DNA of 64,000 bases from a bacterium (GTDB lineage Bacteria > Cyanobacteriota > Vampirovibrionia > Gastranaerophilales > JBAXKC01), in assembly GCA_037137535.1 (NCBI GenBank), contig JBAXKC010000004.1, positions 32,001-96,000 of the forward strand, written 5' to 3'. Numbering within the stretch: the first letter of the stretch is position 1; each line of letters starts with the position of its first letter. A program made the position numbers. Positions 16,501 through 19,500 of the stretch are shown in pieces.

Positions 16501-19500
16501 ATAAACTTGACGGAGAAAAACTCCTTGGAATTTCTTCCCCTGATAAACTGATAAAACACTTTTGGGACTTAGGCGTTCAAATTGTAGTTGTAAAAATGAG
16601 CGACTATGGCAGCACTATAGGCTATAATGGCGAAATAAGATTTATTCCTGCGTATAATGTTGAAACAGTAGACGTTACAGGAGCAGGCGATGCATATAAC
16701 GGCGGGTTTTTACACGGAATAGTTTCAGGTTATAACCCTTTTGAAGCAGCTGCGCTTGCAGCAGTAGTTGCAGGATTGCAAGTACAAGGGCTGGGAGCAA
16801 TAAGATCAATACCTAACAGAAAAGATGTTATGTCTATTCTTGAAAAAAAATCATAAATCCTATACACCTACAACTTTAGTTTTAACTTTAAGATTTAATT
16901 ATTCATGTTTTATTAAATATGATTTAAAATTAACTTAACTTGTTACCTATATTTAAGGAGCTTTTTATGTTTAACCGTAAATGCAAAATCATTTTCATAA
17001 GACATGGTTCAACAATTTATACTGATCAAAACAGGCTGTATGATACTGATGATTATCCACCATTAAACGCTCAAGGACGATTAGAAATTGAAAAAATAAA
17101 TAACTGGCTAAAAAATTCTAACCAAAAAATAGACAGAATTTATTCAAGTTCTGCTTTAAGATCCGTTCAAAGTGCCAGAATAATAGCTCAAGGCTTGAAA
17201 AAAAATGTTGATGTCGTTGAGGGATTATTAGAAAGAAGACCTGGAATATGGGGCGGCTTGACCTTCGGGCAAATTGAAAATAAATATCCTGATATGCTTG
17301 AAGAATATCATAAAAACCCTTCTACCTTTTGGCCTGAAGGTGGAGAAACAACCATTTCCGTAAATGAAAGAGTAAAAACCGTTATTGATAAAATAGTTGA
17401 AGAAAATTTATACAAAAGAATTGTAATAGTTACCCACGGAGGAGTTATTCAATCAGCTATAAGTTCAGCTTTAGGAGTTGCCCCCGAACTTCAGGGAAGA
17501 CTTTATATCCCTACAGGGTCTGCAACACAAATCAATTATTACCATGACTGGCAAAGTTTGGTATTCTCGGCGTATACATCTGTTTAAATGGAGAAACAAT
17601 GAACAAAACTGTAGAATTTATTCAAAATCAAATTAAAGAACACAATTTCAAACCCGAAACAGCAATTATTTTAGGCTCAGGCCTTGGTGATTTTGCTGAA
17701 AAAATCAACGGTGTAAGAATAAATTTTTCTGACATTCCCGGATTTGCAGCATCTTCAGTGGCAGGACATGCAGGAAAGCTAATTATAGGGGAATTATTCG
17801 GCAAACATGTTCTTGCGATGCAAGGAAGATTTCATTTTTATGAAGGTCACTCCCTTGAAAAAGTTATCTACCCTATCAGAATAATGAAACTTCTCGGAAT
17901 TAAAAACCTTATCGTTACAAACGCAGCCGGTGGTGTAAATACAGAATATAAACCCGGTGATCTTATGGTAATTAATGACCATATTAACTTCATAGGAACA
18001 AATCCATTAATCGGCAAAAACTTTGATGAATTTGGACCTAGATTCCCCGATATGTCAAAAGCATACGCTGATAGTCTGATTGAACTTGCTAACAAATCAG
18101 GTGAAAAACTTGGTATTAAATTGCAAAACGGTGTATATGCTGCTCTTACCGGACCATCATACGAAACACCTGCTGAAATAAGAATGCTTAGACTTTTAGG
18201 AGCTGATGCCGTTGGAATGTCAACTGTTCCTGAAGTTATAGCAGCTAATCACTGCGGAATGAACGTACTGGGCATTTCCTGCATAACAAACATGGCTTGT
18301 GGCATTTTAGACCAACCTTTAAACCATGAAGAAGTTATTGAAACATCAAACATGGCAAAAGCTTCTTTCATCGGGCTAATAAGTGAAGTAATAAAAAATA
18401 TTTAAGTTTTGTAAACTTATTAATATAAAATCCTAAAGTTTTAAGGAGAGAGGTCGATAAATAATATATAGACCAAACAAATGGTCATACCCCAACCTCC
18501 TCCCCAAAGTCTGGTAGCCGCCCAAAAAGGTGGCTTTTATTTTGCCTTTTTTTAGACTCGCATTAAGTTTTGTTAACAAACTAAAATAAAACCCTAAAGT
18601 TTTTTAAAAAACTGCCGATAAATATTACATAGACCAAACAAATGGTCATACCCCAACCTCCTCCCCAAAGTCTGGTAGCCGCCCAATAAGGTGGCTTTTA
18701 TTTTGCCTTTTTTTAGACTCGCATTAAGTTTTGTTAACAAACTAAAATAAAACCCTAAAGTTTTTTAAAAAACTGCCGATAAATATTACATAGACCAAAC
18801 AAATGGTCATACCCCAACCTCCTCCCCAAAGTCTGGTAGCCGCCCAATAAGGTGGCTTTTATTTTGCGTTTTTTTATACAAATATCATGCCAAATACATA
18901 GTGATTAAACTGTTTTTTACAATATAACTACTTAAATTATAGATATAAGACAAAAAAGGATATCTTGTAAAATCATGGACAATTATTTTATACAATAATT
19001 AGAGCAACTACTAATTGTTTTTAAACCAACTAATAGGAGAAAAATAATGGCATTTAAAATGGAAAAAATGACAGAAGCAGATATAGCGTACTATAACTCA
19101 TTTGAATTTAAAAACGTTGCTTTTGGCAGTATAAAATATGACCCTCCGTTATTACCTCCACCACGAAACTTTGTAGTTGAGGAGGGGGTAGGAATAAGCA
19201 CAACTGCTTGGATCGTAGATAAAGAACGCAATGCATTTGTACGAGGAGTAGGAGGTGGGGGACATGGAATGCCTGAATTTCAAGTCCTTGTATGGAACGG
19301 TGACGTAATAATATGTTCTTTTTATGAAAAATATACGAAGAATCTTAAGGAGTTTAATTTCTGGTGGATTCAAGCACCAAAGCACCTTCAGAGCGAAGAA
19401 AACAGTAAAGAAATAATAAATATGATAAAAGAAGCTCTTATTCTTGAAGGTACAGGAATTAGCATACCGGCAGGCGCTTTAAATGATCAAGATTATGCCT

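Follow-up and report, generated by a model that had tools for sequence, protein, structure and literature searches.

Three tandem predicted small RNA genes in an intergenic region

The window, a 64,000-nt stretch of contig C4 from a Gastranaerophilales genome (G000; 2.9 Mb, 31% G+C), contains three tandem direct repeats of 161 nt each at positions 18402-18884. Every unit comprises a TAAAGTTT-N11-GCCGATAA-type promoter followed by a 5' hairpin, a C-rich stretch that is mostly unpaired, and an intrinsic terminator. Its features are listed below.

18402..18562: repeat unit 1
18563..18723: repeat unit 2
18724..18884: repeat unit 3
18434..18460, + strand: promoter of copy 1, TAAAGTTT-N11-GGTCGATAA type, 1/16 mismatch to the sigma-28 consensus (C4 50434)
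18595..18621, + strand: promoter of copy 2, TAAAGTTT-N11-GCCGATAA, 16/16 (C4 50595)
18756..18782, + strand: promoter of copy 3, TAAAGTTT-N11-GCCGATAA, 16/16 (C4 50756)
18465..18543, + strand: small RNA (sRNA) copy 1, covariance model match, 83.0 bits
18626..18704, + strand: sRNA copy 2, covariance model match, 80.8 bits
18787..18865, + strand: sRNA copy 3, covariance model match, 80.8 bits
18471..18486, + strand: 5' hairpin GACCAAACAAATGGTC of copy 1, identical at 18632-18647 and 18793-18808
18487..18515, + strand: single-stranded seed region AUACCCCAACCUCCUCCCCAAAGUCUGGU of copy 1, identical at 18648-18676 and 18809-18837
18516..18545, + strand: intrinsic terminator of copy 1 (AGCCGCC-loop-GGUGGCU followed by a U-run), identical at 18677-18706 and 18838-18867

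The sRNA is about 75-76 nt long, with an unpaired stretch of 26-29 nt. The copies in the window fold into the 5' hairpin, the unpaired C-rich stretch and the terminator with a minimum free energy of -20.3 kcal/mol (z -2.3 to -2.7), and the fold of their reverse strand is less distinctive (z -1.5). A terminator scan of the tandem region gave one site per unit. Two antisense 48-aa ORFs (18433-18579 and 18594-18740) were rejected, since they lie on the repeat and carry the same indels.

G000 has nine exact matches to the 24-nt core CCTCCTCCCCAAAGTCTGGTAGCC, in the same nine places where the first-pass annotation had put copies of a ~75-nt RNA gene, namely the three in tandem and C4 111060-111140, C9 31669-31749, C1 105685-105765, C22 34992-35072, C8 7905-7984 and C34 8767-8846. 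All nine were scored at 80.8-86.5 bits by our own covariance model. The core had been described as invariant, which holds within G000 but not across the order, where a 1-nt indel (AAAG/AAG) and one A/G position were found.

The copies are intergenic and independent of their neighbours, each with its own promoter and intrinsic terminator, and the genes on either side are housekeeping genes unrelated to one another, most of them convergent. In two genomes of the large family f3 the sRNA adjoins prs and in a third it lies upstream of a thioredoxin-family gene, a synteny too inconsistent for use. The promoter, the covarying helices described below and the terminator support the prediction that the ~75-nt sRNA is a stand-alone RNA gene.

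A search of sequencing runs matched two runs with 0.08 of the words, and four runs, X1-X4, were examined. A 93%-identical relative is present in contigs of X1, an RNA library, and of X2, probably a DNA library; these contigs continue into both flanks, which are unlike the window on either side. Nothing was detected in X3 or X4. The library contigs speak neither for nor against transcription of the sRNA.

A sigma-28-type promoter at constant spacing from the RNA

The sigma-28 consensus printed in PMC2859248 consists of a -35 element TAAAGTTT, an 11-nt spacer and a -10 element GCCGATAA. Six of the nine copies in G000 match it at 16/16 positions, and the genome contains no other perfect match; the remaining three copies have 1, 1 and 2 mismatches. 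The sigma-28-type promoter previously assigned to each copy therefore agrees with the published consensus within two mismatches. None of the shuffled upstream windows came within two mismatches of the motif. G000 encodes FliA (C23:27701-28375; TIGR02479 score 247.4 bits, cut-off 189.6) as well as seven flagellins and two FlhA proteins, and a close match to the motif, with two mismatches, was found upstream of only one of the seven flagellin genes.

Among 46 upstream regions from other genomes of the order, 29 have the motif at a constant spacing from the RNA, compared with 5 of 1840 shuffles, and it is retained in 45 of 115 further species (2 of 2300 shuffles). In most copies 33-39 nt separate the end of the -10 element from the seed; in copies lacking the hairpin this distance is 26 or 22 nt. 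The promoter takes the form TAAAGTTT/TCAAGTTT-N11-GCCGATAT/GGCGATAT in G+C-richer relatives from other orders. In f3 it is degenerate, with a -10 element that drifts to CCGTATAA and 4-7 mismatches in 13 of the 17 upstream regions examined, 14 of the 17 being from genomes shown to be without flagellin. FliA (TIGR02479) is encoded in 48/48 f3 genomes and in 147/201 genomes of the class, which bears out the earlier report of FliA in flagellin-less genomes, f3 being mostly flagellin-less.

Covarying helices flank an ultra-conserved strand

A consensus obtained with MAFFT/RNAalifold recovered the terminator alone, because the 5' hairpins were misaligned, and was superseded by a structure set by hand on 16 sequences, followed by realignment to the resulting model. 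Paired cells amounted to 91.6% and 96.0%, with 33 and 150 double-sided changes; 0/500 shuffles reached these values, and slid controls gave 13-61% of cells paired. The covariation claimed in the first-pass annotation was thus reproduced. Both helices covary, and all four modelled pairs of the 5' hairpin do so across species. Alignment-free folding gave the 5' hairpin in 32 and the terminator in all of 37 sequences. The lower four terminator pairs and the sequence GUCURGUAGCCG are invariant within the order. In other orders the invariant terminator sequence is replaced by GCUACCG...CGGUAGC and the C-rich strand is unchanged. The seed falls in conserved columns of the alignment of the order and is accessible (mean unpaired probability of the seed region, 0.80).

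The RNA is nearly universal in the order and its seed extends beyond it

Our covariance model detected the RNA in 118 of the 121 genomes of the order Gastranaerophilales and in none of 67 genomes of the phylum outside it. Exactly one copy is present in 85 of the 87 f3 genomes, 80 of which show no flagellin, and FliA is nevertheless kept in this family. The near-universal occurrence proposed for the order, flagellin-less genomes included, is consistent with these counts. Copy number varies between families from 1 to 9, and tandem pairs or triplets recur in at least six other genomes.

The family is wider than the order-wide distribution claimed before, which is correct within the order but not as a limit: at least four families from other orders of the class also have the 17-nt seed, as a single copy per genome, together with the same architecture and type of promoter. 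Across the class, the seed was found once per genome in 67/201 genomes, against three matches of the reversed control, and 17-21 nt are identical across orders. FliA is present in 22 of the 23 seed carriers outside the order. The seed was found in 0/49 FliA-less genomes (families f12 and f17), nor was it found in the FliA-positive families f13, f15 and f16. Several Vampirovibrionia MAGs carry wrong taxon labels.

Relation to known regulatory RNAs

None of the nine copies reached the gathering score of any Rfam family, as had been claimed. The tandem region gave 14 matches at E<=10, all at chance level and none of them to Yfr1; the best sub-threshold match was BjrC1505 (21.4 bits against 50), which aligns on the CCUCCC strand and the terminator, and RgsA scored 18.2 bits against a threshold of 88.4. 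Unpaired C-rich motifs that pair with Shine-Dalgarno (SD) regions, largely Hfq-free, are found in RsaE/RoxS and LhrC of Firmicutes and in AbcR-type RNAs and BjrC1505 of Alphaproteobacteria, and LhrC is also multi-copy and partly tandem. The present RNA differs from these in its phylum, its promoter class and its single long seed, and none of them reaches its Rfam threshold.

The host clade of Yfr1 is the sister class of Vampirovibrionia. Membership in Yfr1 (RF01116, threshold 38 bits) was rejected: its Rfam model matched no copy at E<=10, and its single match at this level in the whole genome, of 14 bits on contig C16, lies away from every copy. The perfectly conserved unpaired 11-mer of Yfr1, ACUCCUCACAC, as defined in PMC2190773, is absent from the sRNA sequences, which carry AACCUCCUCCCCAAGUC and have only CUCCUC in common with it. 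The architecture is nonetheless similar: Yfr1, too, has two stem-loops, the 5' hairpin and a G+C-rich terminator, between which an ultra-conserved C/U-rich strand with CUCCUC is kept open, and it is nearly universal in its own clade (PMC2190773). The unpaired stretch of 26-29 nt compares with 16-20 nt in Yfr1, and the length of ~75 nt with 54-69 nt. Yfr1 acts at the ribosome-binding regions of envelope mRNAs (PMC2190773, PMC6974561, PMC12873609), and the accessible parts of this literature describe no sigma-28 promoter.

In E. coli, the FliA-made sRNAs FliX, MotR, FlgO and UhpU feed back on flagellar gene expression (PMC10578931). The sRNA described here differs from them as a stand-alone intergenic gene in a genome in which Hfq was not found, and its seed is anti-SD-like, with no sequence likeness to them. 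Several near-identical copies, each with its own alternative-sigma or specific promoter, are also a property of the Qrr and NsiR1 arrays, the NsiR1 tandem array being named among the references of PMC6974561. There is no sequence or structural relation to either array, and copy number here ranges from 1 to 9 between families. The best reading is that the sRNA represents a new family of a known kind of regulator, one without an Rfam family.

Predicted pairing with ribosome-binding regions

The first-pass annotation had suggested pairing with ribosome-binding sites. Its best target energies were reproduced (-36.2 and -34.8 kcal/mol), but their distinctness from background was not: the best shuffle reached -35.7 (0/20 shuffles reached -36.2), and the 1st percentile of -22.0 does not differ from that of shuffles (-19.9 to -22.5). 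The predicted targets show an enrichment of flagellar hook, rod and motor genes: among the 2541 start regions, the top 40 include seven of 37 flagellar genes and the top 5% include 14, compared with at most 4 and at most 9, respectively, in 41 shuffles, for a gene set assembled partly after the matches had been seen. Candidate start regions include those at C27:7547, C1:112581 and C1:190531.

Conservation of the predicted pairing across orthologues is weak. At the best target, a GGGGAGG-type site at <= -21.8 kcal/mol is retained in 5 of 11 orthologues (11 of the 16 matches outside G000 were evaluated, L150-L154, all with E>1e-5, being omitted). For FlgN, 7 of the 26 orthologues evaluated retain the pairing at the level of the 5th percentile and 2 of 26 at that of the 1st (26 of 30 loci, with the split or weak matches L181-L184 omitted). 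Because the RNA is kept as a single copy in the largely flagellin-less f3 genomes, flagellar targets cannot account for all of its function.

A proposed FliA-driven riboregulator and its alternatives

Beyond the gene anatomy, promoter match, conservation and covariation observed here, we propose that this is a FliA-driven, Hfq-independent, trans-acting base-pairing sRNA, a reading that is probably correct, with its transcription, sigma dependence, pairing and direction of regulation deduced from sequence features. Each 161-nt unit would be an independent gene for a ~75-nt trans-acting sRNA, on which RNA polymerase with FliA (sigma-28) would start a few bases 3' of GCCGATAA and end the transcript at the predicted intrinsic terminator. 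The covarying 5' hairpin and the terminator hairpin would keep open the ultra-conserved C-rich stretch CCCCAACCUCCUCCCCAAGUC, which resembles an anti-SD sequence and may pair with unusually G-rich ribosome-binding regions (GGGGAGG, GAGGAGGUUG), thereby blocking translation initiation without Hfq. The predicted targets in G000 are two proteins of unknown function together with hook, rod, hook-associated and motor genes (flgD/E/I/K/L/N, motA/B), which would make the sRNA a post-transcriptional feedback arm for sigma-28, and the nine copies, three of them in tandem, may provide a higher dosage.

The identity of 17-21 nt across orders is more extreme than ordinary seeds need. The C-rich strand, and within the order GUCURGUAGCCG, could instead be the recognition site of a protein that is bound or sequestered by the RNA, the copies titrating it in the manner of CsrB or 6S. 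Such a role fits the invariance of the lower terminator pairs within the order, the high copy number in G000 and the weak target statistics, and the same alternative was raised for Yfr1 by Voss et al. (PMC2190773). It fits less well with the exchange of the terminator sequence in other orders, where the C-rich strand is retained, and no candidate protein is known. A CsrA sponge of the CsrB/RsmZ type was rejected because the 76-nt RNA contains no GGA motif. We regard a protein-binding function as unlikely.

The seed also contains ACCUCCU, the canonical anti-SD core, and GGAGG is present in 148 of the 2541 start regions. With sigma-28 active, the RNA might be a general competitor of 16S rRNA at strong ribosome-binding sites throughout the genome and so readjust translation, which would suit nine copies with strong promoters and the persistence of the RNA after flagellin loss. 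The conserved stretch, however, extends well beyond the anti-SD core, with AAGUC as part of it, GGGGAGG is found in only seven start regions, and the overall energy distribution does not differ from that of shuffles; a general mimic of this kind seems improbable. Since the 3' end of 16S rRNA was not found in this assembly, the comparison with the anti-SD sequence is based on general knowledge.

A housekeeping or another alternative sigma factor might transcribe the gene, with the sigma-28 likeness as a by-product of A+T-rich DNA; the low G+C content of the genome, the degenerate promoters of f3 and the near absence of close matches upstream of flagellin genes would agree with this. Its probability is small in view of the six perfect genomic matches, all of them at the sRNA, the lack of comparable matches in shuffled upstream windows, the fixed distance of the motif from the seed and its persistence in G+C-rich relatives.

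The multiple and partly tandem copies in G000, and a 15-codon frame in copies 2 and 3 whose ATG lies within the 5' hairpin, could point to a REP- or MITE-like DNA repeat, a cis-acting leader or a tiny coding gene in place of an RNA gene, a very improbable reading already contradicted by the present data: terminal inverted repeats were not found and the RNA is single-copy in nearly all f3 genomes as well as in carriers from other orders, the genes downstream vary and in many cases are convergent, most species lack the ATG and have a frame-shifting 1-nt indel, and the helices covary as RNA.

Implications for Vampirovibrionia

Melainabacteria (Vampirovibrionia) are common in the gut and the environment, with almost no experimental genetics, and our literature search found no paper on a regulatory RNA in this group. 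More speculatively, and with considerable doubt, FliA and the single-copy RNA of f3 may have been kept as a regulatory pair that outlived the flagellum, the surviving job of FliA being to drive an anti-SD-like RNA acting on non-flagellar genes. On the same doubtful footing, the seed shared unchanged by several Vampirovibrionia orders would make this RNA the most ancient of the conserved riboregulators in the non-photosynthetic lineage that is sister to Cyanobacteria, and the RNA may share ancestry with Yfr1.

The sRNA offers a concrete, testable regulator for these bacteria, with a promoter expected to work with any FliA, a cross-order seed of 17-21 nt and few candidate targets, and Yfr1 of the sister class is its natural counterpart for comparison. 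The sRNA also supplies a missing Rfam family and an annotation marker for Vampirovibrionia MAGs. Sigma-28-linked riboregulation of motility would extend beyond Proteobacteria, and the conservation of the RNA raises the question of why FliA is retained in lineages without flagellin.

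The tandem array and the sRNA unit

The array of small RNA (sRNA) genes consists of three head-to-tail units, each of which combines a promoter, a 5' hairpin, a C-rich stretch and a terminator. The features are as follows.

17599-18405: purine-nucleoside-phosphorylase-family gene, one flank of the array
18402-18884: three 161-nt units, head-to-tail
each unit, + strand: promoter, TAAAGTTT, 11 nt, GCCGATAA (in the first unit GGTCGATAA in place of GCCGATAA)
each unit, + strand: 5' hairpin, GACCAAACAAAUGGUC
each unit, + strand: C-rich stretch between hairpin and terminator, AUACCCCAACCUCCUCCCCAAAGUCUGGU
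each unit, + strand: terminator, AGCCGCC-loop-GGUGGCU, then a U-run
19047-19763, + strand: ORF of 238 aa without Pfam family, other flank, 180 nt downstream of the array

The gap from promoter to hairpin is ~8 nt in each unit (+ strand). The three 83-nt sRNA stretches all folded into hairpin, open stretch and terminator (-20.3 kcal/mol, z -2.3 to -2.7), and the opposite strand gave a z of -1.5. The mean unpaired probability of the C-rich stretch was 0.80. The early coding part of the downstream ORF contains GAGGAGGGGG, which is G-rich but differs from the reverse complement of the sRNA seed. A tRNA-Cys (GCA) at 35741-35813 (+) is the sole Rfam/ARAGORN RNA gene within the window.

BLAST and an exact search with the 24-nt core detected the same nine copies in the source genome (G000), three in the window, which is C4:32001-96000, and six scattered, at the positions reported in the first-pass annotation. 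The genes beside them are unrelated housekeeping genes, among them glycine cleavage, fumarase and glutamine synthetase, and are often convergent. One copy follows flgE at a distance of 125 nt on the same strand, another is close to a chemoreceptor gene and a third precedes an HD-GYP-type gene. The earlier statement that the sRNA has no Rfam family now extends to all nine copies, on none of which any family reached the gathering score; at E<=10 the tandem region gave sub-threshold chance matches only. Contig C8 of the same genome contains, at 58650-58900, two degenerate fragments resembling the 5' part of the sRNA (CAAACAAATGGTCATACCCCA and a poorer copy), without the CCUCCUCCCC seed and without the terminator, which may be decayed copies.

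Covariation of the helices

The covarying helices proposed previously were reproduced in two sets of sequences with R1, a covariance model of the sRNA built from 16 sequences (74 positions, 11 pairs). In the first set, 44 R1 matches from the order (42 distinct) whose alignment, like that of the second set, was fitted to R1, 91.6% of cells pair and double-sided changes occur in 6 of 11 pairs (33 cells); none of 500 shuffles was as high and slid controls gave 14-57%. The second set, 100 loci of the species scan (92 distinct) independent of the first, gave 96.0% paired cells, 150 double-sided cells and 19 further pair types, with 0/500 shuffles as high and slid controls at 13-61%. Covariation in this set includes each of the four 5'-hairpin pairs (98.9% paired). 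When single sequences were folded without alignment, 32 of 37 also formed the closed 5' hairpin and all 37 the terminator. The five hairpin-less sequences form a paralogous subtype that has the seed CUCUUCCCC and occupies the second position in tandem pairs, which suggests paralogues with shifted target specificity. At L041, L044 and L050, loci of this subtype in relatives G011, G003 and G018 of family f4, the seed is CUCUUCCCC and not CUCCUCCCC.

Distribution within the order

The sRNA was detected in 109 of 121 genomes of the order by BLAST with one unit and in 118 by R1. The large, mostly flagellin-less family f3 has it in 85 of 87 genomes, in a single copy each; other families carry 1-6 copies and G000 nine, and R1 found tandem pairs or triplets in at least six genomes other than G000. 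Flagellin_N was present in 40 of the 121 genomes and in 7 of the 87 f3 genomes. FliA exceeded the cut-off in 5/5 flagellin-less f3 genomes and was found in 48/48 sampled f3 genomes. These counts uphold the claim that the sRNA occurs in genomes without flagellin.

The core pattern matched at least 118 loci among ~185,000 species genomes, and the titles of the loci listed were mostly Candidatus Gastranaerophilales, Melainabacteria, 'Cyanobacteria bacterium', Vampirovibrio and unnamed gut bins. Also among the loci listed were a few MAGs labelled Clostridium sp., Muribaculaceae, Gammaproteobacteria or Brachyspira sp. CAG:484. As a marker, the sRNA could flag mislabelled Melainabacteria bins.

At f3 loci L066-L079, a conserved hairpin CATC-NNNN-GATGAGATTTT is located just upstream of the promoter, ~75-100 nt before the sRNA. 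At L072 the stop codon of prs (ribose-phosphate pyrophosphokinase) immediately precedes it, so it is probably the prs terminator there; the gene order around it at L068 is not that of L072.

Promoter and sigma-28

The sigma-28 promoter consensus, TAAAGTTT-n11-GCCGATAA, is printed in a table of PMC2859248. Six 16/16 matches to it occur in the whole G000 genome (2.9 Mb, 31% G+C) and all six are sRNA copies; the remaining three copies have 1, 1 and 2 mismatches. G000 encodes FliA (247 bits vs cut-off 190), seven flagellin-family genes and two full FlhA, indicating that the sigma factor and the flagellum are present. The two full-length FlhA genes (C3:65045-67045, C13:1506-3485) lie in separate flagellar-type clusters, with FliP/R and FlhB on C3 and FliF/H/I/E and rod genes on C13; four more ORFs (C2, C34, C27, C60) match the C-terminal half of FHIPEP only.

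Motifs with up to two mismatches also precede one flagellin gene, a CpaB/RcpC pilus gene, a GAF-HD gene, a TPS-domain giant ORF and several small ORFs without family. The other six flagellin-family genes have no close match upstream, which is a point against a simple sigma-28 picture. Two small ORFs that both start with MGLAASQ and have no Pfam family (C9:24182-24508, 109 aa; C15:45683-46264, 194 aa) follow near-consensus sigma-28-type promoters with 1 and 2 mismatches, and may form a FliA-regulon family that is not yet annotated.

Outside G000, 29 of 46 distinct upstream regions in the order have at most 3 mismatches of 16 (5/1840 shuffles). Among the upstream regions of the species scan, 45/115 reach this level (2/2300 shuffles) and 69/115 have at most 4 mismatches (43/2300). 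In the 46-region set, the end of the -10 element is 33-39 nt upstream of the seed in most copies and 26 or 22 nt in hairpin-less copies. Flagellin-less f3 keeps the -35 half AAAGTTT and has CCGTATAA as the -10 half, and 13 of 17 f3 regions show 4-7 mismatches. The sigma-28-type element proposed for each copy is degenerate in f3.

Occurrence beyond the order

The sRNA had been described as order-wide, which the R1 counts support, but seed and architecture reach further, into families f11, f14, f18 and f20. R1 matched 1 of 81 genomes in other orders of the class (36.9 bits) and none of 67 in the phylum outside the order; the 36.9-bit locus comprises TAAAGGTT, another 5' hairpin, CCCCAACCUCCUCCCCAAGUC and another terminator. 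The exact 17-mer AAYCTCCTCCCCRAGTC matched once in each of 23 of 201 class genomes, all outside the order (f18 17/25; f20 3/5; f14 3/19), and the reversed 17-mer matched none of the 201. At all 23 loci the 5' hairpin is unrelated in sequence and the terminator is GCUACCG...CGGUAGC; most have upstream TAAAGTTT or TCAAGTTT, 11 nt, then GCCGATAT, GGCGATAT or TCCGATAC; the DNA around these promoters is G+C-richer. One mismatch extended the matches to 67/201 genomes, once each (three control matches), with f11 (2/2), f20 (4/5) and f3 (41/48) gained. The seed was not seen in f12 (0/47), f13 (0/30), f15, f16, f17 and f19.

FliA was present in 147 of the 201 class genomes, including f13 (28/30), f14, f15, f16, f18 and f20, and was not found in f12 (0/47) or f17. 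It was detected in 22 of the 23 exact-seed carriers, although this association is no statistical proof because the carrier genomes are related; the five carriers tested all had FliA and flagellin. The occurrence of seed, architecture and promoter type outside the order is new here.

Predicted function and targets

ACCUCCU is the canonical anti-Shine-Dalgarno core. It lies within the sRNA seed, whose invariant stretch extends to 17-21 nt, and the anatomy most likely predicts a trans-acting base-pairing sRNA with the seed presented by hairpins. No Hfq was detected in G000, a 100%-complete genome.

Duplexes of the 30-nt single strand of the sRNA were scored against 2541 crudely called G000 start regions. 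The suggested pairing with ribosome-binding sites was reproduced in its best energies, -36.2 kcal/mol for C27:7547 (417 aa) and -34.8 kcal/mol for C1:112581 (189 aa), both low-complexity proteins without Pfam family. None of 20 shuffles reached -36.2, but one reached -35.7 and the 1st percentile (-22.0) lay inside the shuffle range; individual target predictions are therefore weak. The top predicted duplex involves the C-rich run and the following AAAGUCUGG, and extends over both SD and start codon.

Pfam assigned MotA, FlgI, FlgL, FlgN, MotB, FlgK and FlgD among the top 40 targets. With a flagellar set of 37 genes, drawn from 121 annotated in ten regions that surround known flagellar genes (three of these regions were picked after complementarity or ranking had indicated them), 7/37 were in the top 40 (maximum 4 in 41 composition-matched shuffles; hypergeometric p = 1e-6) and 14/37 in the top 5% (maximum 9 in 41). 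Because every top-40 gene was annotated, a flagellar gene that the list lacks could add to the denominator only. Among the predicted targets, the enrichment concerns hook, rod, hook-associated and motor genes in clusters on C15 and C1 and does not extend to flagellin or export-apparatus genes. Homologues of the C27:7547 protein occur in 15 of 61 sampled genomes, none in f3 or f5, and 5 of 11 orthologues examined keep a GGGGAGG-type site at -21.8 or better; among FlgN orthologues, 2/26 reach -22 and 7/26 reach -17.4. A flagellar link is thus plausible in G000 and its nearer relatives, but it cannot explain the sRNA in flagellin-less f3.

Relation to known RNAs

Cyanobacteria, the hosts of Yfr1, are the sister class of the sRNA's host class. 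Yfr1 is described in passages of PMC2190773, PMC6974561 and PMC12873609 as two stem-loops separated by an unpaired stretch in which a C/U-rich word is ultra-conserved, acting at ribosome-binding regions. As described there it is the closest design, but the sRNA lacks its 11-mer, differs in size and does not match its Rfam model. At L067 (relative G017), the gene directly downstream of the sRNA belongs to the thioredoxin family, and a DsbD/CcdA-type gene comes next; Nostoc Yfr1 is also placed upstream of trxA in a passage of PMC6974561, a probable coincidence. Sigma-28-dependent sRNAs exist in E. coli, and those treated in PMC10578931 are UTR-derived, Hfq-bound and unrelated in sequence. Our searches found no publication on regulatory RNA of Melainabacteria or Gastranaerophilales; gut-metagenome structured-RNA screens (e.g. 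PMC8040213) could list the sRNA unnamed.

Judged from sequence, the sRNA forms a genuine RNA gene family that is strongly conserved and has a sigma-28-type promoter; Rfam does not contain it, and as far as searched it is new to print. It would be classed as an anti-SD-seed sRNA under an alternative sigma factor, with putative transcription, sigma dependence and targets. The family is notable for its reach across orders, its range of copy number and its persistence alongside FliA in genomes that have lost flagellin.
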